Shown here: positions 19,738 through 57,906 of the stretch, piece by piece | Layout of the letters: each line of letters begins with the position of its first letter | Position numbering within the stretch: position 1 is the first letter of the stretch | Assembly: GCA_008632985.1 (NCBI GenBank) | Contig: QPGO01000030.1 | Span: 495,135 to 559,134 of the forward strand | Reading direction: 5' to 3' | Length of the DNA: 64,000 bases | Source: Psammoneis japonica | Taxonomy: Eukaryota | Position numbers and translations under genes: made by a program | Notes under the pieces: generated by a model | Seen by the model: the letters and a program-made list of their open reading frames with translations, nothing else | Database searches by the model: none | Told to the model about the DNA's origin: nothing

Positions 19738-19809
19738 CGACCATGGATATTCATAGCTCGATCTAGTACAGCTGAGCCGATCTGAAATCTCGATAACGAG
19801 GGGACTGCA

Positions 19810-31657: not shown

Positions 31658-31748
31658 GATCCAAAGTGATGGTGCTATTATACCGAGAGAAGATTTTAGA
31701 TTTTTGGATTTGAACTGTGTTGTTGTGTGTTGTGTGTTGGCAGCAGTT

Positions 31749-32739
31749 GGCACAGGCCCGCCCATTGCGCACTCCAAAACCCCAAATTGCGCACCTTTTT
31801 TTGGCACTTTGCGCAGTACGTACAATTCTGCGTGTCTCTGGTGCTGGACGACGGCAAGACGCACGACAATCCAATTGAACGAGAGTTCAACCGCCCTGCA
31901 TTCATTGTGAATTTCAAAGAGGAGCTGAAGGTGTACAAGGAGAAGACTGATGAAATAGATGATGACCATTGGACTGCTCTTGAAGGAGCGGACGAGCATG
32001 ACACCACGCTTGCATTGAAAAAGCAGGAAGAAGCTGGAGAGGAGCGCGGTCGCCCAAGCAACCTTGAAGAACACATGGGCCAGCCAACTGGCTTGGAAAG
32101 AAGATCATGCAGAGGTTGCAAGGAGGGTTTGGGAATGGTGGCGTGTTCACCATGAGAAGCACTCATCCATGTCTGAAGCCAAACGTCTAGCTGGTGGTCC
32201 TCGTGCAACTTTCCAGTGCTCCAGTCAAGAAGCGAGCAAGTTTTTCTCACACACAGCTCTCAAGCACATGTTGTTGAGACAGCCCAGCACAACACGTTGC
32301 ATGATGCCATTTTGTTGCATCTTTTTTCTCATTTGCACAAGGGACATGATGTCAATTGAGACTGTTGGCAGTGCTGCAAGAGAAGCCCAGAGTCGAGAGA
32401 GCTCTCTTCTCAGCTCAAGCGCGCTGCTTGCATGATGCAATTTTGTTGTGTTTTTTTTTCTCGTTGGCAAAAGGGGTGTGATTTAGTGGCAATGCAGTGC
32501 AGCAGCAATGTGATTAACATGATGCAGTGGCAACATGATGTGCCAGCAATGTGATGCAGCAAAATGCAATCAAGAAGCAATGGACGGTGTCATTGCCGCG
32601 GTGCCGGTGACAAAGCACAGCTGCGCTGAACCTGGTGCTGCGCCACGTGCATTCCACACAGTGCACACTCTGCGCAATGCGTTGCGCATTCTGCTGACAG
32701 AAAATCCCCATTTTGTGCACTGCGCAATGGGCCTGTGCC
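31749..32739 (+). mobile_element. Non-autonomous hAT-like DNA transposon remnant
   Basis: Inverted ends GGCACAGGCCC(GCCC)ATTGCGCA / TGCGCAATGGGCCTGTGCC, flanked by CAGTT on both sides; internal frameshifted peptide VWEWWRVHHEK..MSEAKRLA / VVLVQLSSAPV..FS resembles the hAT C-terminal dimerisation domain. Confidence 0.6.
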
Positions 32740-35700
32740 CAGTTGTGTGTTGTTGTGTGTGGTCCCAGGTTGTTGTGTGTGGTGTGTTGGGGGGCTTCTT
32801 TGGAAGTGAGATCGTCGAAGGCAGTCTGATCACCAGTGCATTTGGGGTTTTTTCCCAGTGCAATTTGCACACACAAGAAAACACGCAGGATCTGTGCAGA
32901 GGTCCCAAACACCCAATCGCACTGATTGACAGACTGTTTTTGCACAAATTCTACGTGACTTTCTTCGACAGTCTCGTTTCCGAAGAACGTCCCCAAGTGT
33001 GGTGTGCTCTCATCTCATCTCAGTGCGGAAAAAACGGTCTGTCCTCTTCCTTCCGGTCTGTCCTCTTGGAAGAGCAAACTGTGCAAAACCACTCTTGGTG
33101 TGGCTTCCCGTTGTTTCACATGCAAGCCCCATCTGCTGGCATCGGTCAGAAGGTTGACAAAGATCTTTGCGAAAACAGCGGGACAAAAGAGGGTTGGCAT
33201 CATGGCACAATTGGGGGCCAAAGACAGCACATGGCCATTTTCTAAAAAAATCTGCAGTTTGAGAATTTACACAGATTTCTTGTCATTGATTGTCCTCATT
33301 GATGTGCGATTTTTACATTGTGCATTTCCAATGAATGCCTGCATGCAAAATGCAAGCAAAGGCAAAACAACAATGAATGAGAGCTTTTGGGCCTACATCA
33401 TTCGACAAGAGCATGCATTGCAGACTCACCATGACAATGGCAAAGTGTTTGACATCACATGCCAAAAAAGCTGTGCAAATTTCTTGGTGCACTGCCATGC
33501 AGTCTGTCCTGATGGAGCAAAAAAGGCCCTTTTTGTGACAGTGGCAATGGCACTCAGAACTGTGAGCCTGGCAAATGCAGGCATGGCTGGGAGCATGTCA
33601 GTTGACAATGTTGGAGGACACAAGAAGCGCTGCACAGTGAAAAACCAATCGATTTTGGAGACAAAATTGACTTTTGCAAAGACGCCAAAAGGCAGAGGAC
33701 AGACCGGTTTTTCACTTGCACATGAAGTGATCAGCCCCGCCTGCATCAAACAATCAGAACTCAATGGGTGTGTGTTGATGGCACGGCTGATGACAATGAC
33801 TTTCGCCAGAAGGCACACTCATTGCACGCGGCAGGCATTTGGCTGGTCTTCATCTGCACACAAACAGTCTGCTTTGTGCATCACATGCAGCCAATTCAAT
33901 GAAGTGGTGGCACCAAAATGCCGCCAAAGAACAGCCTGCTGTCAATCTCAAAGAAGCGGTGGCACCAAAATGCCAAAGAAAAGCCTGCTGCCACAAAGCC
34001 ATGCAACACCCCTGCTGGGCAAGCAGCACAGCTTGGCTCACTGAGCAGGAGATCAGGTGGGTGAGCGAGGATGCTGCAACGCCACAAATGACTCAGTGGA
34101 CTGCAAAAATGTCCTGAACACAGACCTTGTCTGAAGAACAATGATCGCCACAGTGAGGGCGAGTCAGCTCCCAAAGATGTGTGCACTGTCAGAGTCATTC
34201 TGGGTGCATCAAGATCAAAAAAGGTTGCAGCAGCATTTGCACAAATGCATCTCCCAGCAGCTTTGCCTGCAGAAACAGGTTTCCCAGTCAAAGCTGCCAA
34301 CACTTGGCCCAACAATGCACTTGCAACACGCCCACAAACAAAGAGGCTCTTGTTCAGCATCTGTGGCTCATTTGAAGCTCAGCCAGCAAGCAGCAGCATT
34401 GCCATTGCTCAGTTTGCTCAACTCTGCCTTGAACAATGCTTTTGTTTGTGAAGTGGCAGCATTCTCTTGCCAGCACCAGCACGGAACTTTGCTGTCACAC
34501 ATTGCATTGTTTGCACCTGCAAGTGCAACAAAATGGGGAAAGTGGTGAGACATGCCTTGTCTGGAGATGTGGGTCATGAGGCATCATCAGTGCGCAGCAT
34601 GCAAAATCCTTCCCCTCCCCCCCCCCCCCCCTCCAACTAAAAGCCCACTGACAACTCCAGCAATGGCCGACATCCCAGGGACAGACAATCTGACAATCCT
34701 GCCCCAAACACCAAAAGATGTCCTGCCTTGTGTGTGACATTGCGCGCAAATTGCAGAGACTCTTGGTTTGTGCATGCAAGTGCAAACTCCATTTTCTTGC
34801 CTGAAGGTCTGGGGACTCACCTGTTGCATGCACATGACCTGTGGAGCATGCGCGCCATTCTGTGGACAGGAAAATGCTCAAGCACAGCCATGAGACAACT
34901 CTGACCCTGGTCGGCCATTTCACTTTGCACACAGTTGAAAAGAACGCACCACTTGCTGCAAGCATCGCTGGCAAGGGTGAGCTGTGCACACTTGGCTGGC
35001 AAAGCTGTTGCAGCACATCACAAAGACATGTGCTGCTCCTTGCATCTGGTGCCAAGTTGACAGCTGTGGGTGCTGTGAAAAACCCCACTGTGCAACCCAA
35101 GGAAGAGAAAAAGAGCCACATGAAAAGTGCCACAAAGTTGAAGAGCTTGGCCCAGCCAAGGCCCTGCAAGTGGCAAAAGTTGACATTCCAAGAACACTGT
35201 CATGTCAAACATGGTCTCATGTGCCTGATGTTGCACTCTTCTTGCACTTCTGACTCAGATGACCATTTGTTTGTGAGCAGGGCGGGAAGTTCACAGCAGC
35301 GGCACGGCATCATTCTCAGCAGCAGGCACAGCTGGCGGCACAAGTCATGAGTTGTTTTTGTCTCAGAGCCCAGCGCTTTTGTGTGGGCTGGGCACCAAAC
35401 AATGTGCACACAGCTCATGGCTGTGTGCAAGAGACCTTGTGATTTGTCCAAAAAAAATTCTCCCCTGGGGGCGAGGCACAGCTGGGGGTGCCCCAAGAGC
35501 CTGTTTGTCTTCTTTTCATTTCTGAGCTCAGCAGCTGGTCTCTTCTCAGCCAGCGTGGCAGCCCTGCTTTGGCCCAGACAGACTGCAAGAGCTGTGCATT
35601 TTCTTTTGCAGCCAGTGCACACACAAAATGTCCCAAAGGGGCAGGCAGCTTCAAAGCTGCTGAAGCCCGAAGCTGAGCACCGGGCATGCTGCACAGCTGC

Positions 35701-36040
35701 GGGGGTGAGGGCACCCTTCTTTGTTGGTGTGCAAATGATGTGCAGTTTTTCTCCCTGCCCTCCCTCCCTCCTTTCCTCCTTGGCCTGCGCCACCGCTGCC
35801 CTCTGACGATGCCCAAATGAGAGCGCCGCACATTGACGCCGCAAACTTTTGTTCAAAACAAGGCAGCAAAGGATGCCGCAGCTTTGTCGCCACACTTCCA
35901 CAAGCTCCCGGTCATTGTGGGCCATTGCCACGCACGTGCAATGCTGAAAAACAAGACCGAAACACGACAGTTCCCACATCTGTCCTCGAGACCCAACGCG
36001 TGCGTGACAAACGTTTTCCCAAAACACGCAACAAAAGAAT

Positions 36041-36098: not shown

Positions 36099-36324
36099 AT
36101 TGCTGGAGGGCACCTGTGGATGGATCTGGATTGAAAATGATGCTGCTGTCCACAAGTCATCAACAAAACCAAACTGCGGCACAGCACAAAACTTTGCAAC
36201 AATTTGGAACGAAACACTTCACCGGAATGGTCTGTGGATTTCTTTGTCAGCAGCTTCGTTGTCTCCAGAGTCTGCGCAAATGTGCGAAAATGTGGGTGCG
36301 TTTCATTGTTGAGTTCAATCCTTC

Positions 36325-38900
36325 AACCTTCAATTGTAAATTTACAATGCTCAGCTCAATCCTCAAACATGTGCGGATTTGACGGACAGGTCGGGTTGCA
36401 CGCTTCATGCTCATCCACGCAGAAGAAATCCACTGAACTGATCTTTTGCAAAGTGCGATGCAACTTGTTGCAATTCTTCACACGAGACTGCAAGCAGAGC
36501 GGCATGAAACCGACTTCCTTGTTTGCCAGCTCGTGGAGTGAAGCTTTGTCCATTTGTTGAGCAAGTGAAAGCACTTGCCAAGAAGCACCTTCTGTGTCAA
36601 CACGAGATCAACACGCTCAGCAATGGATTCGTCGATTGAGCCTAGAATCGCTTGTTCTTCCCTCGATTTTTTGCCCATCTGGCAGAAAGGACGACTGCGC
36701 TTGCAAAACTTAATGGACAAGTTCCAGGTCCAGGTGTGACCTCACACTGCTGAACTGTGACATCGACAGTTTTTTGAATCACGTCGCATGTCGCGCGCGC
36801 AGATTTCTGTGTGATTTTTTCGACATTTTGTGTCATTTTGTGGCACACATGTTGAGCGATCCGTCCAACAACTTTTGACATTTTTTGTTACAGTGCGATT
36901 CCATGATGTCTTAAGAATCGCGCAGGGCAGGCGCATTTGCAAAAACACCAAGTGGCAAGAGGCACAATTGCACCACAAACTTGGCCACTTGTTTGATGTT
37001 GAAGACAAACACATCCATTGATTTGGTTCTCGTCCTGCGGAGCTCGCACGTAGAATTCTGCAGGCCCAATGTCACATGGAGTCCCACCTGGGGCTGGAAC
37101 CCATCAATGCGGAATTGCTCGTTGTCCTCAAGGCACTGGCAGAACTCACGATCCTTTTGAGCCAAGATGCTGACTTTTTCAAAATGCAGGTCGTCGCTCG
37201 GAATGCCTTCAATCAATGCACTCACAGCAGCACGACAACACGTGTCCAATCTGCATGCCTTCCGAACTTGAACTGCCTCTTGAAGAATTCCTGATTCTTT
37301 GCATCGTCGATTTCATCAATGAAAGCTGGGACGTCTTGGGTGGGCATGGTTGAAACAGCGAAGGGGGAAATTGTGCGCGAATGTTGGTGGTCGGCGGTGT
37401 GTGTGTTGGTTTTTTGCCTTTTGTTCCGGCATTCTGCTGCTGCTTGTGCTGGCAGCAGTGGGAGTGGCAACTGCCGACAGCTGCTCTCCAGCAGTGGAGA
37501 GCTTCTTTTAGCAGCAGAGAGTGCATGCACCACAGGGGCAGTCGCAGAAACTGTCTCGCACAGCATGCAGATGCAGCACTTCTGTTGATGTGCGCGTGTT
37601 CGATCGCAGGCAGAAACCATGCATGTCTGCACCAAACAAAATCCGGGCACGACAGCACAATGCGCGATGATTCACCACATGCAGAAATCAATGAAAATCT
37701 GTGCCAAACCAGTTCTGATGGGAAGCTCACAGGTCAACTCCACACAAACTGTTCTCATGCAACCAAAGACATCAGTGCCATCTTGACAAAGACCACTCGT
37801 TGTTTGCCTTCGCAGAAGGAAGACATGGAAAAATTGAGGGATCAAGTCCACCATTGTGACAACCGCTGGACCAGGAAGGAGAAAGACAAGCATTGGAGTT
37901 CACTCAAGCGGGGTCACCAGCACTCGTTTCAGTCCGGTAAAAAACAACGGAATGTTGGCTGCACTCCTTGTCCATCCATTCAACAGATCTGCACGGAACC
38001 ACTTTGGAGGGACCCAAAAAATCTGGCTTGCCTTCCGGAATCCCACCGTCCAGTGGGGCTCAAAAAGGATCTCATGATCAGCAGAAATGCCTTGTTGGTG
38101 AAAGCTGCATGCCTCCGCAGGTGCAACATCTGCGCTGCTGTCATTGACCCTGTTGGCAAAGAACATTTGACTGTCAAAAAGTGAGTGTGCTGTCATCAGG
38201 GTTCTCAACTGCATGCCCCAAACTGTCTTTTCTTGCCCCTTTTCCATTGGTGTGTTCCTCACTCTGTTTGTTTTGTGGCAGGTGTGAGGATTGCCACATG
38301 CACTTGCTTGAAAAAATCTTGTTTGCCTTCCACCCATGCAGCAAGTGGTCTGGTGTGAATCCCAACGAAGCTGCTCTTGCTGTCAAGCGCGCCATTGCGG
38401 AAAAGCACTCTGTGCCGGAGGTTGCTTCCGTGATTGATGGTGATCACACTGCGGACGACAATGATTTGAGTGCAGAGCACAATTGCAAAACTGCGGAGTG
38501 CTCCAGCAGGGTTTTGACTGCTCGTTTGCGTCGTTTTCAAGAAGTCGAACTTGGCGCCATGGCGTTCATTCTTGTCACAGATCATCATCGCAAGATGATT
38601 CACGAGCATGACTCTGCACGCGCCACGAACGAGTTCCGAGCTCTTTGCAAATGGCACAAGGAGGCTGCGGAACAGCATGCTCAGACTTTGAATGTCGACG
38701 AGCCAGAGACATTTGCAGCTCCTCTCCGTGACCCCAGCCGCGGTGGTTGCCACTTCAATCACTTGGGTTTCCTTGGAGCTGTTCTCCCTCATTGGGAGCA
38801 CAAATCTGTTGAGCTCAATCTCCCGGAAATCACAATGGAGAGTCCATTCCTCCAGGATCTCTCTCGCACCCATGCGAGCCAGTTGCTTTTCAGGAGACAG
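36325..38900. pseudogene. Copy A of a duplicated unit with two divergent orphan genes (minus ~36350-37345; plus ~37760-38900 with intron 38181-38281)
   Basis: Aligns block by block with 40340-42530; frameshifts and Tyr loss; gtgagt...gcag intron conserved in both copies. Confidence 0.7.
36715..37105. mobile_element. ~400-bp MITE-like insertion in copy A
   Basis: Absent from copy B at the matching site (~40728); imperfect inverted ends gttccaggtccaggtgtgac / gtcccacctggggctggaac. Confidence 0.5.
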
Positions 38901-39354
38901 CAGTGCACCAAAAAAGAAACGGCTGGCCTCCACAACGTCTGCTGCAGATCAACGGTTGTTCGTTGCTTGTTTGTGTTGCATTGGGAGCAGCACATCGTGC
39001 TCTTTGTGGCAGCAACACATGCAATGGACAACATGGCATCAGCTCTGCTCGTGCCCATCAGCATCGTGACATTTTGCCGTTTGCATCTGCTGGAGCAGAG
39101 GCTGCAACGGCCAAATTGAACGCAAAGGGGAGTTGAGAGATTTCTGTTCGAGGTTGTCGTTCTGTTGGCAACTCAATTTTAAGCCAGTCGAGCTGTCTCT
39201 TTCTCTGTGGTTTCATCTTTTCTCTGGAGTCTGTCATGCATTCTGGCGGTGGCGTGCCTTCGCAACAAAGACGTGCATGTGCATGACTTCCGTCCAGCCC
39301 CCCGCACGCCAGTTCGACTTTTCATGTGTTTTTTTTTCAGTTGAATGTGCAAAC

Positions 39355-39684
39355 GCATCTGTGCCCGAGTTGGTCTAAGGGGGCAGACCCAAAAAATGAA
39401 GTTGTGATTCCTTGTGGAAAACAGTGGCAGCAAAAGTGCATCCGCAGGGATTCGAACCCTGGCGTGCGAATGCAGCAGTGCTTGAAACTGCCCCCATCTG
39501 TGCCCGAGTTGGTCCAAGGGGGCAGACCCAAAAAATAAAGTTGGGATTCCTTGTGGAAAACAGTGGCAGCAAAAGTGCATCCGCAGGGATTCGAACCCTG
39601 GCGTACGAATGCAGCAGTGCCCGAGTTGGTCTGTAAGGGGGCAGACCCAAAAAATAAAGTTGTGGAAAACAGTGGCAGCAAAAG
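39355..39684. repeat. Tandem array of tRNA-Leu fragments: plus-strand 5' halves alternating with minus-strand 3' parts
   Basis: Three gtgcccgagttggtc..aagggggcagaccc units, each followed by a shared spacer ending ggaaaacagtggcagcaaaa and then gtgcatccgcagggattcgaaccctgg. Confidence 0.8.
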
Positions 39685-39767
39685 TGCATCCACAGGGATT
39701 CGAACCCTGGCGTATAAATACAGTTGTGCTTGAAACAACCCCCATAGACCAACTCGGGCATAGATGC
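39685..39767 (-). tRNA. trnL-CAA: tRNA-Leu(CAA), apparently intact
   Basis: GCATCTA/TGGATGC acceptor stem plus discriminator A; D-arm CCCGAGTTGGTCTATGGG; GTTGT-TTCAAGC-ACAAC anticodon arm; GTA-TTTA-TAC variable arm; CAGGG-TTCGAAT-CCCTG T-arm; TTTT terminator immediately downstream. Confidence 0.85.
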
Positions 39768-40339
39768 TTGTACCTTTCGGATGGAAAATAGATGATAAAT
39801 ACAACATGTTTGTTTTATGTGTCTGTTCCCCGCCCGCCCCGCGCGCCCGCCCCAGACGCACGGTACAGTGCTGTACGTACGACAACGCATGCTCGTCATA
39901 CGGCAGTTAAATCAGACAGCCAACGAGGCACGGCGACACCCTTGTTGCGACGTTGATGAAACGAAGCGAAACTGACCCATTTCGAACGAGAAGTGTGCCG
40001 CACACATCCAATCAGCTACAACCACGAGACGAAAATCCACTCTTGTGGGACACTTCAAGCCGAACACTGGGCCGAAGGTGGTTGAGAGATGTCGCGACTC
40101 CCTTTTGTGTTTCATTTGGCTGTTGCAGCCAGACAATGTCACTGGGACGGGCTGTGTGTGGATTTGGTGGCGAAAGCAGCTGTGTTGCCTGCTCTGCGGT
40201 GCTCTCGCTGGATTGGCTTTGACTCTCAAAGACAGCCGTTCTAGCGACCCAAACAAGAAGAAGCTGCACGCATCAATTCAGGCCGGGGGGTTGGCAGAGC
40301 ATGCCAAGCTTCTGTTTCATTGGTGAAGCCAAAAATCCT

Positions 40340-42530: not shown

Positions 42531-44569
42531 GACAGCAACAAAGAACGCACAGGAAAATGATCAGCTTTGTTGAAGAGAATGTTTTTGTAATGTCTGGATT
42601 AGATCATTGTAAACACAAACAAAACGTGCAACTTCGATCGCCGGGAGACTTGATCAATGTCCTTCAGACTGTGCTGCGCTTTAGCCAAACCGTGCAGTGT
42701 GACGCGTTGAGTGCATCTGGGACAGCTTCGCTCAATTGCATCAAGCAGGCACATTGTGCAAGAAAACCAATGTCTAAAACCAATGTTCAAAGAACTTGCT
42801 AAAACATGATCTCTTGGATCTGACACAGATCTGAGTTGAAATGCCTTTCCCGATGCTTCGCTGCCTCCAGCCTCTCTTCCGATGAATGCACCACAGCTGT
42901 CCAATGCAAGCTGGGGAGAATCAAAGGTGGACCCAGCCTTGCTGGAGACGGCAGCAATGAGAGAACCAGCTTCTTTCTTGCCTTTTCAAGACGGGAAAAA
43001 CATGAGAAAAAAGGAAACGTGAAAAAGCCCCATCGCTTGGTTTTGATGTGGTTCTGAACTCAAATGAGGGAAGCAAATGAATGACAAAAAGGCCACATCC
43101 TTCATCACAATGAGATGTGAGAACTTTCACTGAGATGTGATTCCAGCCCTGGGCATTTGAAAAAGCAAGCAAGAGAGAGAAGAGGGGTGCAGGGCTCCAT
43201 GTGTGACAGTGCCCATGCTTGCCTCGTGCGCTCCATCCCAAGGTGGGAATTCTTGGACATTTGTCAATTCCGTGTGTGAGCTCTGCAGCTCATGCAATGG
43301 GTGGAATCTTTGGCACAAAAACAAACAACATTTTTGCAGCGCTGCCCCAGCTTCAAAAATTTTGAAAATGAGCGACTGTCTGTGCACCCAGTGTGCTCAA
43401 AGAGAGAGCGAGTGCAAAGGAAAGCAGAGCAAATCACGAAAAGTGAAAATTGTGAGATTGGATTTTGCTCCACAATTTCAGGTTTCTTTGAATGAGTTCT
43501 CAATGGCCCAAATTGCTTGCTCTGCTTCTGCAAACCAAAAAGGCCTTTCGGGAAATCCAGCAGCAACAAGAGCAGCAGATTGCCTGGGTGCAATCAAAGC
43601 TGACATCTCATCTGTCAACATCATTGATCAATTCTTGCACTTGCAATTTTAGACATCCAACCAATTCTGTGCAATTGTTCTGACCTTTGTGCGCATCCAT
43701 GACTTCCATGTGATTGACACTCTGCTTGACAGTGCGTGCTGCACTCGCCTCCCCAATTGCACATTAGGGTCTCTTGTCAAATGGAGCCATTCAACAGACA
43801 TTGACAGCATCAACAACCTTGCTCCTGGTGTGCATTGTGCATGATGCACATGCAAAATTCAGTGGGGGGTCTTGCAGAATGACACCCAAAAGAAAGCACA
43901 TTGTCCTGGCAGCTGCTGCTCACCTTCCAGATGCTGCAAGCTGCGCAATCCTTCAACCATGCCTGTCAGCAGGGCCACCTTGAGCAGCTGCTCAGAGGCA
44001 CAGGGTGCCAGCAAGAAAGGCCTTGTAAAATGAGCGAAATGCACATTTTGACAAACTTCAATGTTGCTGAACAATGCTCACAGGATGTGTTGCCAATGCA
44101 TGCTCCACACCAGCACATTTCCTGCTGACACACAACAAATGATTCTTGCTGTGAAATTGTGCGCAGCTGGTCCAGCATGTTGGGTGGTGTTGGGTGTTGA
44201 AACCACAAAAGACACGTGGCAAATTGGCAAGAAATCAAAGCAGTGTGAGCTTGCAGCCACCGTGAGCTCAATGAATCCTGCCACCAGCTTTTGCATGTCC
44301 CCACCCACCATTTCAGTCTGTGCAAAATCAAAACAATTCAGCACATTTTCAAGTTTCCAGTGAGTCCTGGAGCTGTTTGTTGTCAAGCTCAGCAAAAACC
44401 CACTCTTGTGGTGAATTTTTTATTGTTGTGCTGTCCCCAGCACCCCATGGCTTGTTGCAGCACAATTCTGTTGCAAAGACAGAGCCCACACCAAAGCTCT
44501 GGTGACAGTCATTTCTGTGCAGCAAAACACAAAAAAGATCAGCACCACCTCATCTTGTGTTTCATGGCT

Positions 44570-46620: not shown

Positions 46621-46689
46621 GAGCTCTCATCTGATGTGTCACAAATCACAGAAAATGCTCCTGTCATGGAGTTGACAGCCCACATCAGC

Positions 46690-49600
46690 TTGTCTAAACT
46701 TTCAAAGCTTCTGGCCCTGCAATGGCTCAGTCACGAAGTCTCCAAGCGCGCCATTGGCAGGACAGTGTTGTGCTCTTAAGGTGCCCTTCTTGATTTGATT
46801 GGCAACAAAGAAATGCCAAATGACAAGTGCTCTGGACTGCTTGCCAGCACTCTTGCACCCATTGGTCTCAAGCAGTGTGGCACTCTTGTTGTCCCAATGC
46901 AGGACATTCTTGTCAATGAGGTGTCCGTTTTGCTCCATGAACAACTTTGTCCATGGCATCACAGCCATGGCATCATTGACTCCAACAAGTTCAGCTTGTG
47001 TGCTGCTTCAGATGTTGATCTTCTGGTGCTTCAACACAGCTTGCAATGCTCCATTGCCCATGGTCATGACTCCTCTGGTGTGGCTCTTGAAATCATCAAG
47101 ATGCGCTGCAAACAGTGATCCAAGCACCACTTGACAACTCAGAGGTCCTTTGCACTTGGCACAGAAACATCATTTCATGTCCGGCTCATGTGCTTGAGAG
47201 ACAACAGACTGGCTTTCTCCAGTCTTCATTGGCAGGTCCCCTGATGCATGATGCTGCATGAGGCGCACATCTGTGCAGCCTCTCTTGGGTGCAAGCAGTC
47301 TTTTGGCCACCCATGCATGGAATGCTTGTGCGCTCTCGGCTGGCAGTCTAGCGCCGCTGGTGTCAAATGGGTTCTCACCTGCTGGTGTCATGGCAGTGTC
47401 CATGCCCTGGATCTTTTCAACAAGCTGATCAATCATCTTGCTGCCAATGCAGCTGGTCATGTCAACCTTCACCTTGCCCTTGCAGCTGAAGTGCAGGGTC
47501 ACACCAAGACAGCCATGTCTTTTCCTTTGCATGGCAACAATGGCTTCACCATGGCTTCCACGCATCTTGTTTGGCCAGCTTGAAAATTTGTCATTTGCTT
47601 TTGAGTTCTTGTGGCTTGACATCAGGTCATCCACATGGAATCAGATGGTGAGCTGCTCGCCATTTGCAGAATTGCCTGTGCTGCAGCAGAGCCACAATCA
47701 ACACACTGCAAATGGCTCAGATGACTTGGACACAAAGGACTCACTTGCCCTTCTCCAGGGGTGGTCCACATGGATTGTGATCAATGCTCAATGGCATGTC
47801 AACCAGCTGTCCTGCAATCTTCATCACAATCTGGTCTTTGCCCTCCTCAGGCTCCAAAATCATCATCTGCACAAATGTGTTTGGTGCATTGACACTCATG
47901 ATGTTGCACTCTTTGTCAGCATCAATGACTTCCATCATCAGTGTTCCTTCTGAGGATGCTGCAGGGCTGGCTGACTCATCTTTGTCCAGCCATTCTTGTG
48001 TTGGTTTCCCATTTCAAAATCTTTTGCACTTTTGTGCAACTGTCTCATTTCTTTGTTGGAAACAATCAAGACTGCCATTGCCTTGGTCCTCCAAGTCAGA
48101 GTCATGTCCTTGACTGACAATGGCGCAGAGCACACTCAGTTGTGCAGTTCTTTCATTTCTTTCTCTGGGGCATCACCCCCCTGTGGCCAAATGATGCTTC
48201 AAGGCCTTCATGCAGCAGATGTTGTTGGGCAAATCAAACACCCTTGCCTGGTCAGAGTTGGTTGGCAATCTTGCACATGAAGTGCACTGCATTGCCACAT
48301 CACAAGCAAGCAATGTCATCCTCTGGATGGAGGCTCATGTTTGTTTGCAAATGATGGCAGTGTTTGAGCTTGTTTTGTTCTTGCTCCACTTCTTTGTTGG
48401 CATCTGCCACTCCTGCAAATTGAACTTTCCTTTTTTGCATTTGCGTGGTCTCATGTTGAAAGATGTGTCACATGGTTGCTCCACAGGCATTGCTCCACCA
48501 GGCACACCACTTGCTTCTTCCACCAATCTTTCTCCTTCCCATCCATTGTCCTCTTCATTGGGTTGGTCAGCATCTTGTGGTGGTTCTGTGGTTCCTTTGC
48601 ATTCCTTGTTGTCCTCACAGTCTTCATTTTTGTCACTTCCGCAGTTTTCATCATCATTTTCTTCTTCTTCTTCTTGGTTGCCATGTGATGTTGATCAGGA
48701 CTGAACCTTCTCTTTCATCTGCTGGAATCTCATTTTCTTCTTTGCGAGCACTCATCATCTGAGTCTGCCTCATCTTCACAATCTTCATCATCAAACTCGG
48801 TTCTTGCATGGCTGGCATCATGATGATCATCTTGTGTCTGCCCTTGCTGTCGCTTTTGTCACTGGTGCTTTGGTTGTTGTCCACTCCTGCAGCCCAGTTG
48901 GTGCTGCATAGATTGTCTCTGCACCAATTGCCCACAAGTTCAAAATCTTTGAAGCCTTGTTTTGTGGCCATCTTCTCAACTGCCTGTGTGTGTGTGTGTG
49001 TGTGTGTGTGTCAAGGCGCAGTTGCAGGGATTCAGTGGCTTGCCCATCTGCAGGTTCACAGTGCAGTGTTCACCCTTGGGCAAATCAAAATGTGGTCACA
49101 AGCATGCGCTGTCAATGTCACGTGCATCCAGAGCATTTGTTGGGTTGTCCTCAATGTGAGAAATCACAAATTCTCTGAACTGGAGCTGGAAGTGTTTGTT
49201 GCAATCAAGGTTCCTTCATTGCACAACAGCGTGTTTGCTGTGAGCATCCAAAATCCCCTCCTTTTGTGGCATGCTCATGCATCATCTTGGGTGTCATTTT
49301 GTGTGGTGCATGGTGCACAGTGGCTCAAGTTTGCTCCTTGATGGTCTGCATGCTCCGCTCACCTTTGGGAACATGCTCTTTTGTGTGAGTGAAAATCAAC
49401 TCCAGATTCACACCTTTGGCAACTTCCCCTGCATTTCCTTGAACTTGGAAAATCACACTCTGTGAAGTCAATCTTGAGTGGGGCCATGTTGTGCTGTCAG
49501 AGAATCATGCTCAGTGCTTCACACACATTGTCATGCTTCTTGGACCTCAGTCTCACTCTCAATTGACATCAGCTGATCGTCTTGTCTGTTGTGCACAGCA

Positions 49601-50920
49601 GCTTGGCACTGCATGCTTCCACAACATCAACGCAGAGGATTGCAGCACCTTTTCTCTCTCCCTCTCACATGTCTCAGGTGGTGTGGCTGTGAAGTTGTTC
49701 TTGCCTCTCATGAGAATTGGTGTGTGTGTGCTTGGTCTTGCCTTTTGGTGCATCCATTGGTTGGCCCCAAAATGGCAACCATCCTGTCCACATCTTCAGG
49801 AGGAGACTGATGGACAAGTTCTTCACCTGGTTGGAATGTAAAAATGACTTGAAATCCCTCACATTGGGTGTTCCAGCCTTGCAACACAGTCTGAGTGCTT
49901 GCTCAGCACGTGCCACCTCCCTCTTGGTGCAGCCCATGGAACTCTGTTCCACGATCAGAGCTGCAGTTCCAGGTGCACTTCTGTGCTTCTTGTTGGTCTG
50001 TTTCTTCATCTTCTTTGTCTTCTTCTTCAATGGCATGCTCGCATGTGTCTCACTTTCTTGGAGATCTTTTGTGCAGTCAAAAAACTCCTGGCTTGGCACA
50101 AAGGTGTGTGGCCCAATGTTGTTCACTTTGAACACCACAACCTGCTTGCTGGTTTTTTCTTGTCCAGCAGCCTGGACTCATTTGCCACTCAGTCATCATG
50201 AGTTGTGTGGTGCTTGCTCTTCACATCCTTTGGACTGAGAATGTTTGCTGCCATGTTCTGTGATCTGAGTTTCACACACCCCTGTCCACTGTCCGGGCAT
50301 GGCACAGGCTTTGTTCAAGGCATCCACTCCTGTGTCAGTGGACAGATCAGCTTCAGGGATTTGGCAAGTGTGTGGAGCAGGTGTTGACCTCTCATTGAGT
50401 TGAATGCAAGGAGTTGCATTGGCTTCAACAGCTTGATGGGATTGTCCCCAATCATGCTTGAGCAACTGGGACTGCCTTGCACTCTCTGCTTCATTTGCTT
50501 GGTGCAGCAGTCTTGTTCTCTTCAAGCTTCTTCACTTCATCATTGCAGTCATGGCCTGTGGCTCAGCCTTGCGCCAGCACCTCAGCTCTTTTTCTTCTTG
50601 CTGTCTTGTCTCCAGCTCCTTGTGGAGTCTGACCTTGACCCATCAGTTGGTGATTTTGTCTCTTGGGTGCACCCAAGGTGGGTTTCTCTTTGCTGAAGCC
50701 TTTGCAAATCCACCATGACAGGAGCTTCAACATCTTCTTTTCAATGTGTCTGGGGGGTCTCCTCTGTGTTTCTGCCATCTGGATGCTCCGGCACAATGAC
50801 CTTGACATTGATTGGGCCACCAACCCAACCAAGATCTTTTGCTGTGAATTTTGTGAATGTCAGCCACAACTTTTGCTCCAAGGCCTGTGCGTCCACACCA
50901 CCATCTGTGAAAAAGCTGTG
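46690..50920 (-). mobile_element. Degenerate Ty1/copia (CoDi-type) LTR retrotransposon internal region: gag, pre-integrase, integrase, RT, RNaseH
   Basis: RNaseH WTKLFMEQNGH...DNKSATLLETNG..SAGK.SR...HFF...HCP..GDFVTEPLQG; RT DDLMSSH...HGCLGVTLHFS.KGKVKVDM and VIDA...PNTFVQ; pre-integrase GCTKREVARAEQA..L...GTP..DFK...KGKT; domain order fits copia. No LTRs found. Confidence 0.85.
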
Positions 50921-50929
50921 AATCTCTGT

Positions 50930-52094
50930 GACTGTGCAAACCGCCACTCTCTTCCCACATGCTGTCTGGCCTCATGGTGGGCATGTGCATTTTTGGCTCA
51001 AAAGCCTCTGCTCCAGCCTCAACAACACAAAATTGAAGACGAAGCTTCCACGCCTTCATTTGCAAGTGTGTGGCTGCAAGCCCAGCAATGAGCTGCAGCT
51101 GCTGCTTCAATTTTGGCAATGCACCCAGAGCAGATGCACCCCCAGCATCCCCCCGCCCCCCCCTCCATGTGCACGTGCCACTTCACCCAAACAACCTGCC
51201 ATCCAGCAAACTTTGAAAGCTTTGGAAGGGAGACATGGCCCACATCTTCTTGCACATCCCATGTCATCTGTCACCTGGCCAAATGACCCACCATCAAGCA
51301 AGCTGCAGAAGCTCCAGAAAGTGACAATGGCCAACCCTCCCTTCTCACAACCCCTCTCAAACCTCCACAATCATGTGCAACAATGTGCTGAACTTGATTG
51401 CATGATTGCCTGCTGTGCAGTTGCTTGCATGACCTTGGAGATTTGCTCTCACACTGCAACCTTCACATCTCCCATGCCCCCCCCCCCCCCCCCCCCCCCC
51501 ACTTTCATCCTGCGATCTCACTCCAAGGCTCCCACCTTCATGCCACCCTCTGCAAAAAAAAAAGTTTGTTCCACCCCACTCAGCTCATCCACCTCTGGAG
51601 CACACACTGGCCTGATCATGGGCATCCTCTTCCACTTCAAAAACATTTGCTCCAACACTGCCGATGCAAAAGTGAAAACAAGACCACTCTGCCTTTGACT
51701 TCAAGCTTGAGGCCACAAGCCCAGCAAAATGCAACTGCTCTTCAGAAAGGCACATGTCCTCATCTTTGGCAATGCCACCAGAACAACTCAAAACCCCCAG
51801 CCAAATCCCATCTTCTTGCCCATCCCTTGTCACCCAAATGACCTGCCATCGAGTGAGCTGCAGGAGCTGTGGAAAGGTGCAATGGCTGCTCCTCCCTGCT
51901 CACAATCCCCCTCAAACCTTTGAAATCATGCTCAACAATGCATCAGCCTTGACTGCATCATGATTGTCTGTTGCAGCCAGCACTTGCACAACCTTGGAAA
52001 CCTTCTTTCCTGCTGCAAACTTTGCATCTCCCATGCCCCCCAGTTTCATCCTGTCGGATTGCAAACAGGGTGGCCAGTTTGTTCAAGCAAGAGA

Positions 52095-52128
<34 letters not shown>

Positions 52129-52130
52129 AA
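50930..52130 (+). mobile_element. Two tandem 3'-end fragments of the Penelope-like element, the second ending in (GA)n
   Basis: Homologous to 55300-55800 (HP.G..TGLIMG, NDPPSSELQ.LW, NLGNLLS); poly-C at ~51476-51500; GA/GACA tract 52090-52130. Confidence 0.8.
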
Positions 52131-52232
52131 GACTGCGTGGTGAACTGATTTAAAAAAAAACAACAACTGATCAAGTCTGCTTGTCTGTCCTCCACCAGTT
52201 GGATCTTTTAATGCAACAACCTCAACCACATC

Positions 52233-52296
52233 AACAACAGCAGCCAGCCACTGATGAAGCAACTGTGAAAGTCTCTCTCCTGACTTCAGCCAACAG
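52233..52296 (+). ncRNA. Minimal type I hammerhead ribozyme, degenerate (copy 1)
   Basis: CTGATGA at 52251, GAAA at 52267, GTC/GAC stem III, TT at the cleavage position. Confidence 0.55.
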
Positions 52297-55200
52297 CTGG
52301 ACAAATGTCTGAACCAGCAGCTCCACCTTGGCTGCTTGCATTTCTTGTTTGTCACATTTGAAGGAAAGTTGGCTTTGAAGTGCCAATTTTGTTTGTTGTG
52401 CCTGCCATTTGCTGAAGCAGTTGGACAAATGTCCGGTCAAGCAGCTCTGCCTTGGCTGCTTGCACCACTGTTGTTTGTCACATTTGACGGAAAATTGGCT
52501 TCACCAATTTTGATCGTTCGTTCAAGAGAGAGTGCAGTGACAACAATGGATGCTGCAACCAAGACCACCAACCCAAAACGTGCGCATTTCAATTCAACTG
52601 CGGTGAACCCAGCCAACCAGCAAACAAGGACATCCCTTGCCACCACCACCCAATGCATCAGGGACCACATCGTGTGGCTCCAACCAGAAACAGCCACCAT
52701 CCTCGAGAAGCTTGCTGTCAACCAAATCCAATTGCAAGCCAAGGCCTGTGACAAGGCCTTTCATGTCCAACGGATGGAAAAAGATGAGGAGTTCACCCCC
52801 CGCTCAACCCAAATCAACTTTGAATTTCAAATGTCAAAAACCGCTGAACAGAGCCAGGAGTTCTTGGCTCTGCAGGAGGAAACCAACGACCTCATCTCCA
52901 ATGCCCAAAAAGCCTTCAAAAAGCAAGTCATCCAAGCCACCAGGGTTGAACTTCACGTCATCCAAGAAGAAATTTTGGAGTCGTTCGCGAAAGCCACCCG
53001 ACTTGCAACCAAGAGTTTTGCTGTGGCCAACAGCATCACCACACCTGTCGACACCGCAGTGGTCACCCTGCTTGACTGCTGCCATGAAATGCTGCCAAAG
53101 TGCATCAAGGTCAAGAACCTCAATGTGTCCCTCACCAAATGCAAGGCAGCAAATGCTGTTGCTGACCTGCCACAACCGCTGGTTGCCCCTGCCGCTCGAC
53201 AATCCCAAACTCAAGATGACCGAGCCAGCGACTCCTTGTTCCTTGCACAAGAAGCAGTGCCAGCACCTGCCACTCTGCAAATCACTGCTGCACAACAGAA
53301 AATCGAGACTGAACTCAGCAAGATCTTCCGGGCGCTTGAATGCATCTTCATGTCTCCCTGGACCACCTGCCTGGCAACCAAACAGAAACATGACATCAGC
53401 CTCCAATTGAAAAAACTCAACAAGGAACACTTCGATGCCAAGGCCACCAAGAGCGCCAACATGGAAATTGATGGCAAAGCCACAGTTGACCCTCCCACTC
53501 TCCAAGAGCTCATCTGCAAGGAGACCGAGAAAAATGCCAAAAAGCTCTCCCAACAGGTCAACTCGCTTGCTCAATGCCTCAAGTCCATCAAAGCACAGCA
53601 GTCAAACAACCTGAGGGGCCAAAACTGCACCGCCGGCGCCTCATCACAAAAAGAAAAAGGCAAAGGTGCCCCATCGGATCGCACGAGGAAACAACACCCT
53701 CAATGCGACCGTGAAGCCGACAATGCCGACAACAACACCGCCAGCACAAACAAAAACAATTGACACGACTCCAAATCGAAACAGCAATCAAAAAAGAAAC
53801 AGCAGCGCTCCAACAACAGTTGGAACAGGCACCAGAGGCAACAACTCACTGAATCCATCGCACATGCGGATTCGTCACCAACCCATCTCACACAATCCAA
53901 CACAACGCCTGCACCCACCTGTGACGCATGCCCGCCTGGTGCTGCTTCAACAGGCCCTCACACCTTGCCTTCCATGACTGCACCACCACCAAACAACCTC
54001 CAATCACTGCTTGGCCTTAGTTTGAAATTTGTCCCTGCTCCGCGCTTCACCAACAACGGGAAGTCCTCCAAGATCCAAGAACAAACACTCGGAAGATTCA
54101 AACAAGACCTTGACAAACGAGATTTCTTCGCCAACGCACCTGTCAATGACGATGACAGAGGTCACAATCCCAGGATGCACCTCTGTTCCAACTGGACGCC
54201 CCCCTCCCTGGAAACTCACCAACATTGTCACATGCTGACACACAACCTTTGAATCACAAGTCACCAACCTCCTTGTGAAACGCCGTGGCAGAACCAACCT
54301 GCTGCCCCACCAACAACGTGCCCTGGCCTTTCTTCACAAACAAGACAACTTCACAATGGCCCAATGCGACAAGAACCTGGGGCCGGCCATCATCAAAAAG
54401 ACCGAATGTGCAAAGATGGCATTTTGCAACCATCTCAACGGCATGAATGCGCGCCAATTTTTGAGCGAGTTTGCATCAAAAAACTCCTCAATGACTGGCT
54501 CAAGGAACACAAAAATGGCCTCACACACTCCAATGGAATGCAAGTGCCTGAAACATTGCCTTGAAGCTAACAAAGACCCACCCCCCATCTTCCACCTTGC
54601 TCTGAAGGTGCACAAAGCCCCTCCGCTTTGATCCCGACCGATCGTCTCTGCCAGCGGCAGCCTGCTCTACGGCTCAGGCATCTGGGTGGATGACAAGCTC
54701 CAGAAAGTTGCGCGCCGCCAACAACCATGCTTCAAGAGCTCTGTGGACCTGAAACAAGCACTCGTCCAAATGGAGGTGCCATCGAACTGCCTCCTCTTCA
54801 CATCCGATGCCGAGGCCTGCCACTCCAATGTGCCCACCAAAAAAACACTTCGATTGATTGCTTCCCACCTCCGATGTCATGAACACGAACATGACGACAT
54901 GCCAACGGATGCCCTTGTCAAAGCCCTCCAAATTGTGATGGAAAATGATGCACTCACCTTCGGAGACACTGCCTGGCACAAGCGCAACGGAGCTGCCATG
55001 GGCACACCACCCGCCCCTCCATGTGCCACTTTGCACTGCGCACTTCACGAAGACATGCTCCTGGAGGAGTTCAGCTCCCAGCTTTTTCATTGCAAACAAT
55101 TCATTGATGACGTCTTCAGCATTTGGCACATTGCTGACACTGCCGCTGATGCCGCCACCTGGGAAGCATTTGCCTCCAGGCTTGATGACTTCAATGTCAC

Positions 55201-55797
55201 ATGGATCACGAGCCCACAAAGCCACCAAGTTAACTTCATGGACCTGACGATCTCACTCCAAGGCCCCAACATTCACACTGCCCTCTACAAAAGAGAAATG
55301 AACCTCTGCATGTGTGTCCCACCTCACTCAGCTCACCCGCCTGGAGCACTCACCGGCCTCATCATGGGCATGCTTCGCCGCTTTAAAAACCTGTGCTCCC
55401 AAAAATGAACTTGCTCCACCTCCGACTGCAAGCTGGAGGCTGCAAACCTGGCAAACTGCAGCCGCTCTTCCAAAAAGCGCGTGACCTCATCTTTGGCAAT
55501 GCTGCCAGAACAGCAGAAGAGCCCCAGTCAAACCCAATTTTCCTGCACCTTCCCCATCACCCAAACAACCCACCATCAAGTGAACTGCAGAAATTGTGGA
55601 AAGGTGCAGTGGCCAACCCTCCCTGCTCACAGCCCCTCTCAAACCTTCGAAGCCACGCCTGACAACGCATCGGCCTTGACCGCCTGATTGTCTGCTGTGG
55701 TCGCTCCCACAACCTTGGAAATCTCCTTTCATGCCGCACACTCCGAGTCTCCCATGGCACCCCAGTTTTGTCCTGTCGGGTTACAAACATGGAGGCC

Positions 55798-55838
<41 letters not shown>

Positions 55839-55937
55839 AACTTGATTTGAGTTCAACTTGATTTGAATTGAACAGATTCAATCAACCTGTCTGTCCTTCT
55901 TTGGATCTTTTTAATGCAACAACGCCCACCGCACGTC

Positions 55938-56008
55938 AACAACAACAGCCGGCTGCTGATGAAGCCACCACGAAAGTCTTGTTCTCCTGACTTCGGCCAA
56001 TGTTGTTG
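55938..56008 (+). ncRNA. Minimal type I hammerhead ribozyme (copy 2, best preserved)
   Basis: GGCTG-CTGATGA-AG(CCACCA)C-GAAA-GTC..GAC-TT-CGGCC; stem I is extended by caacaaca/tgttgttg. Confidence 0.7.
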
Positions 56009-56128
56009 TGCCTGCCATTCACTGAAACAGTTGGACAAACATCCAATTAAGTGGCTCTGCCTCAGCCACTTGCACTGCTGTTGTTTGTCACCTTTGACAG
56101 AAAATTGGCTTTGCCAATTTTGATCATT

Positions 56129-56169
<41 letters not shown>

Positions 56170-56263
56170 CAGAGAGAGAGAGATGGTGATTTGATTCAAA
56201 TCATTCCAATCAACTCATCTGTCCTCCTTTGGATCATTTCAGTTCAACAATGCCCACCATGTG

Positions 56264-56334
56264 AACAACAGCAGCCAGCCACTGATGAAGCCACCATGAA
56301 AGTCTCATGCTCCTGACTCTGGCCAACATTGTTG
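56264..56334 (+). ncRNA. Minimal type I hammerhead ribozyme (copy 3)
   Basis: GCCA-CTGATGA...GAAA-GTC..GAC-TC-TGGC, with a paired stem I and a CUC cleavage triplet. Confidence 0.65.
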
Positions 56335-56450
56335 TGCCTGCTGTTTGCCAAAACAGTTGGACAAACATCCAATCAAGCAGCTCTGCCTCAGCTGCCAGCA
56401 TCATTTGTTTGTCACATTTGACAGAAAATTGGCTTCACCAGTTTTGATTG

Positions 56451-56488
<38 letters not shown>

Positions 56489-56499
56489 GGGGAAGACAG

Positions 56500-57245
56500 A
56501 CAGATCATCATGGGCACATGCTGTTCCAACTCCAAAACCTTTGCTCCAATCCACAGGATGCCGGAGCCAAGATGAAGCTGCAGTGCAGTTGCTTGCAAGC
56601 CTGCGGACACAAACCCAACCAACTGCAACCAATTTTCCATGAAGCACGCAACCTGATTTTTGGAAATGCAGCCAGAACAGCAGCACCCCAGTCCAACCCA
56701 ATCTTTCTCCACATGCCCTTCCATCTGAACGACCTGCCTTCAAATGAACTTCAAAAAAATTGGAAAAGTGCTGTGTCCCAGCCACCCTCCCTGCTCACAA
56801 CCACTCTTCCACGGACCTTTGCAACTGTGCATGATGATGCATTGGCCCAGCCCACATGATTGCATGCTGCAGCTGTGCATGCAACCTTGGGAACTTGCTG
56901 TCACACCACAAGCTTGTGTGTCCTGTGGCCCCCCAGTTTTGTCCCGCCGGATTGCAGGTGTGGGAAGGCCACTGCTGCAAGAGAGAGAGAGAGAGAGACA
57001 GAGAGAGACAGAGAGTGATCAACCAGCTGTGGATTTGAAAACCAGTCATTCAAATTCACCCATCTGTCCTCCCTGCAGCAACAGCTGCACCTCGGATCTT
57101 TTTGACAGAAGAGCTTCAGCCACCACAGTCAACAACAGCAGCCAGTTGCTGATGAAGCCACCACAAAAGTCTTGCTCCCAACTTTGGCCAGTGCCACTGT
57201 GCTTGCCATTTGCTGAACAGCTGGACAAACGTCCAAATCTTTTCA
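56500..57245 (+). mobile_element. Further Penelope-like 3' fragment, (GA)n tract and pLTR module with a broken hammerhead (CTGATGA at 57149, GAAA mutated)
   Basis: LQACGHKPNQLQPIF...NLIFGNAAR homology to the long copy; GA tract ~56980-57016. Confidence 0.75.
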
Positions 57246-57906
57246 GCGCAACAACCTCTGCACACTTGTGTTGGCGCTCTCTCCCCCCCCCTGTGCGCCT
57301 CATCTCAGAGCCCCGGTGGCCATGCTGACACAAACAAGCAGCACGAGGACAATGCACACCATTTGAAAAAAGGGGGGGCTGCTTCAAATGCTTTTTTATT
57401 CAAGCACAATGCTCTGCCTCTCTTGTCATGTTGGCGGGGCGTTGTGCCGAGAATCATTCAACTCATTTCCCGCTGGCTCTTTTTTCAAGTTTGTCTTTTT
57501 AAGTTGAGAGTGAAAGAGCCCAGTCAGTGAAGAAAGGAGAGGCAGCAACTTGCCTCATGACCCACGCGGAAGCTGCACAAGAGATGCCACCTGTCTCATC
57601 CATCAAAGTGGAGGTGGGACGGCCGGGAACCAGCAACCTGCAGCAAGGAGCGAGAACAGGCGCAAATGATGTGAAACAGAATCCACCACCACACGTCAGT
57701 CGTGTTTTGGCTTTTTTGGAAGGCGGCGCCACATCATGGATCGTGCATGGCCACATCCGGCAGACCTGACTGACTGACTCATGATTCATGATGTCCGTCA
57801 CCGAACCGCTGCCAACGAAGTACCTCACCAAATGTACATGGTTGTGAAAAGCGGAGTCATACGGTGTTTTGAGGTTCATAACGCTAGTTGATGCATTACA
57901 GCAATG

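Follow-up and report, generated by a model that had tools for sequence, protein, structure and literature searches.

How does a block of some 26 kb come to be nearly devoid of the dinucleotide TpA when the gene-rich sequence on either side has it at ordinary frequency? This question is raised by a 64,000-nucleotide stretch of Psammoneis japonica contig QPGO01000030.1 (hereafter, the window), in which a TpA-depleted, TG- and CA-enriched domain (31,700-57,820) occupies the entire space between two divergently transcribed genes. The initial annotation had described this near-absence of TpA, the accompanying excess of TG and CA and the ordinary flanks, and had set the limits at 31,700 and 57,800; windows of 2 kb and 500 bp confirm the composition, and the limits are accurate, with dense TA stopping at 31,697 and returning at 57,821. 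The explanation that we favour, with a probability of roughly 80%, is that an island of repeats was changed in place, after insertion or duplication of its elements, by a context-specific process that converted TA to TG or CA on either strand and came near saturation.

The depletion is severe and sharply delimited. In 2-kb windows, the observed/expected (o/e) ratio of TpA is 0.00-0.18 at 32,001-58,000 versus 0.48-0.92 in every flank window, and the corresponding ratios of TG and CA within the domain are 1.51-2.25 and 1.25-2.22, with the G+C content nearly level throughout (0.47-0.53). At the finer scale, a 500-bp window of the domain contains 0-6 TA, where base composition predicts 22-38, the sole exception being 39,501-40,000 with 19 TA. 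Leaving out the tRNA island that is responsible for this exception, only 67 TA are left in 25,281 bp (31,950-57,560 minus 39,600-39,930), where ~996 are predicted from the flank frequency; TA thus has a frequency of 0.0027 in the domain and 0.0394 in the flanks. Four straggler TA lie beyond the last dense TA on the left, the furthest of them at 31,956. The thresholds that were used to delimit TpA-depleted clusters in the chlorarachniophyte Bigelowiella natans (Mettrop et al., bioRxiv 2026, 10.64898/2026.01.13.699255), namely Rho_TpA <=0.43 together with Rho_CpA+TpG >=1.52 in >=3 consecutive 1-kb windows, single out the same domain when Rho is re-implemented as the standard o/e ratio (the formula of the preprint being given as an image): Rho_TpA is <=0.35 in all 26 domain windows, 21 of which also have Rho_CpA+TpG >=1.52, and both thresholds are passed by these 21, in runs that include 7 and 11 consecutive windows, and by 0 of the 38 windows outside.

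The balance of dinucleotides indicates what became of the missing TA. From flank to domain, the frequency of TA drops by 0.0367 and that of CG by 0.0347, TG gains 0.0326 and CA 0.0429, and the four pyrimidine-purine (YR) steps add up to nearly the same total, 0.2363 (flank) and 0.2404 (domain). Because transitions preserve the purine/pyrimidine skeleton, a constant YR sum is what interconversion within YR steps predicts, and the gains of TG and CA are alike in size, signifying that both strands were affected. CpG is depleted too, unevenly, with an o/e ratio of 0.6-0.84 at 36-43 kb, of 0.09-0.15 at 44-52 kb and of about 0.1 in a sub-block (43,000-52,500) where it is nearly erased as well; the frequency of CG is 0.0584 in the flank, 0.0237 in the domain and 0.0076 in the sub-block. 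The footprint of methyl-CpG decay (CpG down, TpG and CpA up) is therefore present in the domain and accounts for part of the gain of TG and CA, and for none of the loss of TA. This co-depletion of CpG and the TA-normal tRNA island are additions to the initial annotation. A further consequence of the composition is that, with TAA and TAG gone, only TGA stops remain and many long false open reading frames (ORFs) arise; the domain contains 125 ORFs of >=95 amino acids. The ORF at 32,959-34,041 (361 amino acids), for which a homology search returned no relative at E <=0.001, is probably such an artefact of stop-codon loss.

That the change ran from TA to TG/CA is established by five independent lines that agree: the mass balance, a protein record, the relatives of the protein, paralogues within the domain and repeat copies in sequencing reads. 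The protein record comes from the ORF at 54,632-55,405, which has 5,600 relatives in a library of 1.84 billion proteins (best E 1.5e-74, 47% identity, proteins of ~650 amino acids). A weak RVT_1 match in one of eight intact relatives scanned (17.2 bits, under the Pfam cut-off of 29.6) suggests that the family is reverse-transcriptase-like (RT-like), and it is assigned to no class; its profile had no match among PDB sequences. Mapping by tblastn with seven relatives as queries outlines a near full-length, frame-shifted and hypermutated putative retroelement ORF of this family (53,928-55,794, in three frames), a further fragment (44,860-45,318) and two C-terminal fragments (51,279-52,040 and 56,509-56,933), all on the plus strand. 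The window copy matches 86 of the 118 columns that are conserved among 19 relatives, and none of its six conserved Tyr is kept, four having become Cys (TAY->TGY) and two His (TAY->CAY), in line with changes on both strands, whereas every conserved Pro (9/9), Gly (8/8), Asp (6/6) and Trp (5/5) is retained. A protein of 351 amino acids from metagenome contigs (P0239), itself a relative of the ORF at 54,632-55,405, has a similar profile, with Tyr at 0.85%, Cys at 5.1% and His at 7.1% of its residues, and retains 0/5 conserved Tyr (C, H, S, H and H, respectively), the sole case with fewer than half kept among 145 evaluated relatives; judging from its protein sequence, this could be another hypermutated element, one belonging to an environmental organism.

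The relatives also bear on the possibility that the scarcity of TA is native, that is, that the domain is foreign or viral DNA, or belongs to a repeat class that is intrinsically free of TA. Such an origin would be in keeping with the viral insertions that are the targets in Bigelowiella, according to the parts of the preprint consulted, and with the fact that most ORFs of the domain lack a recognisable family: a Pfam search of the six frames (stops read as X) and of the 125 ORFs yielded 0 significant families in the domain, viral ones included, and a search of PDB sequences with three frames of 31.5-44.7 kb gave no matches. TA, however, is ordinary in the RT relatives, with o/e ratios of 0.45-0.94 in 79/79 loci, contradicting the idea, raised in the initial annotation as an argument against hypermutation, that intact family members might be equally TpA-poor. 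The window copy has the YR content of its family (0.2353 versus a median of 0.2329 for the 79 relatives) and a TA frequency (0.0038) far below the relatives' minimum (0.0262). Since, in addition, conserved Tyr were replaced by Cys or His, two paralogues lost their TA independently and other copies of the repeats retain TA, as described below, a native composition is scarcely credible. Among the relatives, three metagenome loci (L025, L074 and L005) have CG o/e ratios of 0.23-0.43 (0.23 in L025) and TG of at most 1.57 at a normal TA of 0.53-0.65, showing that CpG decay and TpA loss are separable.

The paralogues are two copies of an element of 2.2-2.6 kb and of unknown family, copy A (36,300-38,902) and copy B (40,314-42,537), which lie on the plus strand and are 79-86% identical. 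They differ by 227 transitions over 1,743 aligned sites, including 58 adjacent double transitions (29.6 expected for all classes together), of which 36 pair CA with TG and 0 pair CG with TA. The table of YR steps at homologous sites (TG/CA 36, CG/TG 32, CG/CA 28, CG/CG 36 and TA/TA 3) fits an ancestor with ~56 TA and ~121 CG in the aligned length, close to flank densities, from which each copy would have independently lost ~90% of its TA and ~45% of its CG after the duplication. Transitions number 0.186 per site within YR steps and 0.081 at the remaining sites; for transversions, the figure is 0.026 in either. On these figures, the TA step would decay at least ~4 times as fast as CpG and at least ~28 times as fast as other transitions per position, both values being lower bounds drawn from saturated data. 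The initial annotation had proposed a DNA-level, strand-symmetric conversion of TpA to TpG/CpA within the repeat domain, and this proposal finds support in the replacement of Tyr by Cys and His, in the TG-versus-CA discordance between copies A and B and in the TA found at homologous sites of other copies.

The last of these observations comes from contigs that were assembled from exact 31-mers of a sequencing run (X1) and that also allow the bases themselves to be checked. If a modified base at TpA (and CpG) had been misread during basecalling or assembly, the true DNA would still be TA. This could be suspected insofar as X1 is possibly the assembly's own data and a few single-copy YR differences separate the window from the contigs. 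The exact-31-mer contigs nevertheless reproduce the TA-free sequence at flank depth (58-78 in the domain versus 58.3 in the flank), a depth that error-rich reads would not yield, making a basecalling artefact unlikely. The eight longest contig pieces among those listed have 0-3 differing letters each over 932-2,789 bases; seven of the eight lie within the domain, and one X1 contig spans its left boundary. A strand-dependent miscall would, moreover, not leave a clean, site-specific mixture of TG and CA with TA near zero, and neither the TG-versus-CA discordance of copies A and B at 36 homologous sites nor the occurrence of both Tyr->Cys and Tyr->His in the RT copy is expected of it. Within that run, high-copy relatives have TA at the corresponding positions. 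We consider the artefact very unlikely.

Among the 40 listed of the 75 differences between the window and the contigs of the sequencing runs, 29 are exchanges among YR steps, with CA or TG in the window opposite TA in 10 and opposite CG in 11. At four of the former (32,886, 32,910, 32,943 and 36,902), TA is found in nearly all of a depth of thousands. Three of these sites fall, together with 32,868, in a high-copy repeat recognised by read-contig depth (32,336-33,669), other genomic copies of which retain TA or CG opposite its CA and TG; at these four sites the window has CA and the bulk of the depth in other copies has TA. The fourth, 36,902, lies in an insertion resembling a miniature inverted-repeat transposable element (MITE) that is present in copy A only (36,706-37,103; 398 bp, with 20-nucleotide terminal inverted repeats at 36,721-36,740 and 37,081-37,100). 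The summed 31-mer depth of the contigs that match this MITE-like element reaches 63,105, versus 58 in the flank, which places it among the most abundant repeats of the genome; the window copy retains 4 TA.

Four kinds of repeats are thus affected, namely fragments of the RT family, tRNA-derived tandem units, the MITE-like element and the duplicated 2.2-2.6-kb element, and several microsatellites are among the further components of the domain. The assertion of the initial annotation that unrelated sequence classes were hit alike stands for these four, although its copia, Penelope and intron-containing pseudogenes received no support from Pfam. The GIY-YIG, integrase/RNase H or transposase domains by which Penelope, copia and DNA-transposon elements would be recognised had no significant Pfam match in the six frames or the 125 ORFs. 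The diversity of targets also bears on the idea that retroelement transcripts were hyperedited from A to I at the RNA level and then reverse transcribed and inserted. The domain does include a retroelement, and enzymes of the ADAR type prefer a 5' U, as mentioned in the discussion of the preprint (10.64898/2026.01.13.699255). The loss, however, takes in everything between the two genes, the MITE-like DNA element, the units derived from tRNA and sequence of no assigned class among it, affects both strands about equally and has its edges at gene promoters rather than at element ends, so that this route, too, is hardly tenable.

The TA that survive disclose a preference for the 3' neighbour of the A, the order of loss being T>C>G>A. 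Among the 67 survivors, not one has a 3' pyrimidine on both strands (GTAC, ATAT and GTAT/ATAC), against expectations of 20.0 from the flank and 17.2 from the RT relatives; a 3' purine on both strands is found in 34 (TTAA, CTAA/TTAG and CTAG), against 13.0 and 14.2, respectively (chi-square test, p = 8.8e-15 for the flank baseline and 1.7e-9 for that of the 79 relatives). An additive model with relative rates of 2.7 for T, 1.45 for C, 1.2 for G and 0.55 for A is self-consistent over the ten symmetric classes; on the opposite strand, the same preference reads as RTA over YTA.

These features help to weigh the candidate chemistries. The leading candidate, at somewhat less than even odds, would be a deaminase of the cytidine deaminase (CDA) fold, whether TadA/ADAT-like or other, that turns adenine in DNA into hypoxanthine; the 5' T of the target matches the U33-A34 context of tRNA deaminases. 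Alternatively, the T of TpA could be the target, with TET/JBP-type oxidation to 5-hydroxymethyl- or 5-formyl-uracil leading to mispairing with G and to T->C changes. As TA is its own reverse complement, the T-directed route yields the identical TG/CA outcome; the two processes are indistinguishable in sequence, and the context can be read as TAY or as RTA. In some protists, modified thymines favour TpA steps. The sole study of the signature proposes adenine deamination in the parts consulted (10.64898/2026.01.13.699255), and we regard the T-directed route as unlikely.

The initial annotation had also put forward error-prone repair of methylated DNA by a Y-family polymerase of the Pol eta type. 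Pol eta makes A->G errors opposite T at WA motifs, and the CpG decay in the domain suggests methylation. WA, however, includes AA, which is no rarer in the domain (0.0817) than in the flank (0.0757), and it is because AA is untouched that this candidate is disfavoured. Nor is there a clear 5'-A excess among the differences between copies A and B, in which purine changes outside YR steps are little more numerous after A (20+21) than after G (11+17), and a near-total erasure of TA alone with a 3' pyrimidine preference is unlike the WA pattern. AA/TT being undepleted, Pol eta is a highly improbable source of the footprint.

Where the process stopped is as informative as what it changed. On the left, the domain abuts a gene for which no family was found (30,275-31,657, minus strand), with a candidate ATG at 31,657 and transcription directed away from the domain; the distance from the edge to this start codon is 40 bp if measured by dense TA and about 260-300 bp if measured by the stragglers. 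On the right, dense TA returns 83 bp upstream of the ATG, at 57,904, of a gene for a light-harvesting protein (57,904-58,767, plus strand; two exon-like ORFs matching Chloroa_b-bind, PF00504, with E values of 4.7e-15 and 1e-16), which is likewise transcribed away from the domain. Host genes are spared, and the repeats between them, RT-family, MITE-like and tRNA-derived, are not.

Within the domain, a single TA-normal island (39,604-39,908) holds 18 TA in 305 bp, where ~0.8 would be expected at domain density. In its middle lies an intact tRNA-Leu(CAA) gene (39,684-39,767, minus strand), recognised by ARAGORN and by the Rfam tRNA model (48.9 bits, E 8.6e-08), and the retention of TA extends to 140 bp of upstream sequence. 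Opposite the TA of the intact unit, two degenerate tandem units of 139 bp with tRNA halves (39,356-39,633) have CA, TG or CG; for instance, where the intact tRNA gene has GTATAAATAC, one degenerate unit has GTACGAATGC and the other GTGCGAATGC. Across the 139-bp units that adjoin the island, the retention of TA declines. Besides protection by an active gene, the island, and it alone, could owe its TA to selection that acts on the tRNA gene or to having arisen recently.

The edges near two start codons, together with the ~300 bp spared at a tRNA gene that looks active, point to a process directed by chromatin. In the sequence of events that we envisage, elements would have been inserted or duplicated first, and their TpA steps changed afterwards, in place, the A:T pair of TpA being converted to G:C on either strand (TA->TG or TA->CA) nearly to saturation, with ordinary methyl-CpG decay (CG->TG/CA) proceeding alongside, more slowly and unevenly. 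A chromatin state, silent and probably methylated heterochromatin, would direct the process, and not sequence repetition as such: promoters and a gene transcribed by RNA polymerase III (Pol III) would be spared and all else exposed, access being governed by chromatin. We infer that an enzyme drives the process, that silenced chromatin aims it and that its role is genome defence.

Several points weigh against this explanation of the domain, or limit what it can carry. The signature was seen in one 64-kb window. One of the two motifs by which the 79 relatives were fetched contains Tyr, a choice biased against hypermutated copies, and the baseline for the context analysis assumes that the ancestral repeats had TA contexts like those of the flank or of the relatives. 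Outside YR steps, too, transitions separate copy A from copy B (8%), and hence the loss of TA need not be fast in absolute terms; what is estimated is a relative rate. In tRNA substrates of the eukaryotic deaminase ADAT2/3, position 35 is mostly G or A, so that the 3' preference T>C>G>A found here weakens the idea of ADAT2 as the enzyme. Finally, X1 may be the assembly's own sample, in which case the support from its contigs would not be independent, and its platform was deduced from k-mer depth.

Single-copy X1 contigs also differ from the window by YR transitions in both directions at 39,715, 42,610, 38,061, 37,168 and 38,982, and likewise at 45,031, 45,962, 37,650, 44,162 and 48,506, these being at least the sites found among the differences listed; the one at 39,715 is a TA->CA difference in the variable arm of the intact tRNA-Leu gene. 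None of the differences listed for X1 falls within the 2.8 kb of covered flank. These single-copy differences could be alleles, differences between sub-clones, errors or ongoing mutation.

The identity of the host matters for the comparison with known systems. The flanks contain eukaryotic genes for a bromodomain protein, an FAD-binding protein, a mitochondrial carrier and a MaoC dehydratase, in addition to the light-harvesting protein. A protein-atlas search with the MaoC protein and the cluster names of the RT relatives yielded nothing on taxonomy. Diatoms alone are found among the named relatives of the MaoC protein (Asterionellopsis glacialis, Seminavis, Pseudo-nitzschia, Skeletonema, Nitzschia and Epithemia; 37-46% identity), so that the window is diatom-like and not from Bigelowiella, and the attribution to a diatom made by the initial annotation is upheld at the level of named relatives. 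Other features of the window stand apart from the TpA loss. The left flank contains a 407-bp tandem duplication, 92% identical, at 18,406-19,256 within an ORF on the minus strand (18,289-19,812), and a tract at 26,000-28,000 with an unusually high TpA content (o/e 0.81-1.03) and an excess of AG/CT, as well as a pair of 200-bp repeats at 26,726-27,173. In the domain, (GA)n tracts occur at 52,090, 55,801, 56,131, 56,453 and 56,980, a 326-bp tandem repeat at 55,879-56,478 and, within a decayed RT fragment, an exact (100%) 74-bp tandem duplication at 45,122-45,272.

Fungal repeat-induced point mutation (RIP), as known from Neurospora, consists of C->T changes mainly at CpA, creates TpA and is triggered by sequence duplication. 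The domain resembles its products in that a DNA-level transition hypermutation degrades repeats, leaves a dinucleotide footprint and likely serves genome defence. The chemical outcome is the opposite: TpA falls from 0.0394 to 0.0027 and CpA and TpG rise. The trigger differs as well, everything between the two genes being affected and not duplicated sequence alone. Methyl-CpG decay of silenced repeats shares with the domain the conversion of CG to TG/CA, strongest at 43-52.5 kb, but cannot remove TA. With the ADAR and APOBEC enzymes that edit viruses and retroelements in animals, the process would have in common clustered, deaminase-type transitions directed against selfish nucleic acids. These enzymes act on RNA or on single-stranded intermediates and on one strand, APOBEC at C in TC or CC contexts, whereas the domain consists of genomic double-stranded DNA that was changed in place, on both strands and on the scale of a chromatin domain. 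In another diatom, Phaeodactylum, transposable elements carry H3K9me2/3 and H3K27me3 according to the part of the report consulted (PMC4504042).

By far the closest parallel is the TpA-only hypermutation of B. natans, here summarised from the parts of the preprint consulted (10.64898/2026.01.13.699255). Of the 302 new single-nucleotide mutations in its mutation-accumulation lines, 231 fell in two silent integrated viral regions, and all but one of these 231 were A->G or T->C changes, every one of them at TpA, with a de novo rate raised about 1000-fold; the same genome contains 124 clusters in which TpA is depleted and CpA+TpG enriched. Adenine deamination is proposed as the cause and a homologue of ADAT2 is named. 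The two cases agree in that transitions at TpA only give TpG or CpA depending on the strand, in local, sharply delimited DNA of silent, non-host appearance, and in a long-term footprint of TpA depletion with CpA+TpG enrichment. By this analogy, the process that shaped the domain would be of the same kind, a kind already known, in a diatom-like host lineage that is new. The cases differ in host (a diatom-like stramenopile here versus a chlorarachniophyte), in target (an island of transposons and repeats versus giant-virus or virophage insertions) and in depth of depletion, Rho_TpA being about 0.00-0.13 in most windows here versus 0.45 in the region of Bigelowiella derived from nucleocytoplasmic large DNA viruses. 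The rate, too, has a different meaning, as it is a long-term, relative estimate from paralogues here and a de novo value from accumulation lines in Bigelowiella. CpG decay, the preference for the 3' neighbour and the spared tRNA island are features of the domain that do not appear in the preprint text consulted, which contains no mention of diatoms, stramenopiles, 'CpG', 'trinucleotide' or 'flanking'. Our search of the literature on diatoms in connection with TpA/CpA/TpG, RIP, mutation accumulation and hypermutation or deaminases found no relevant report. The statement of the initial annotation that nothing of this sort was published for diatoms accordingly holds for the literature searched, with the qualification that a process of the same kind is described in the B. 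natans preprint.

Specific A:T->G:C hypermutation of selfish DNA at TpA has so far been known from one organism and one preprint, and its chemical direction is opposite to that of RIP and APOBEC. A saturated footprint in a diatom-like genome would turn what looked like a rhizarian curiosity into a possibly widespread eukaryotic genome defence. The domain also adds rules beyond those in the consulted text of the preprint: edges bounded by promoters, a tRNA gene spared with ~300 bp around it, concurrent CpG decay, a preference for a pyrimidine 3' of the A and a rate that is at least ~4-fold the rate of CpG decay. They narrow the search for the enzyme, which would be interesting as a naturally occurring A-to-G editor of DNA. 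For genome annotation, the practical consequence is that such domains lose TAA and TAG stops as well as Tyr codons and are therefore prone to false long ORFs, and that homology searches miss the transposons in them, as Pfam did here. We tentatively suggest, as a possibility that falls short of an even chance, that diatoms and chlorarachniophytes, distant branches of the assemblage of stramenopiles, alveolates and Rhizaria (SAR), share a chromatin-guided DNA-editing defence in which a natural enzyme, working on A (or T) of genomic DNA with a preference for TAY, would remove TpA from silenced selfish DNA until saturation, active promoters and Pol III genes being its barriers. If this is true, a natural DNA adenine editor with a defined sequence context and defined targeting rules awaits identification in algae that can be cultured and transformed.

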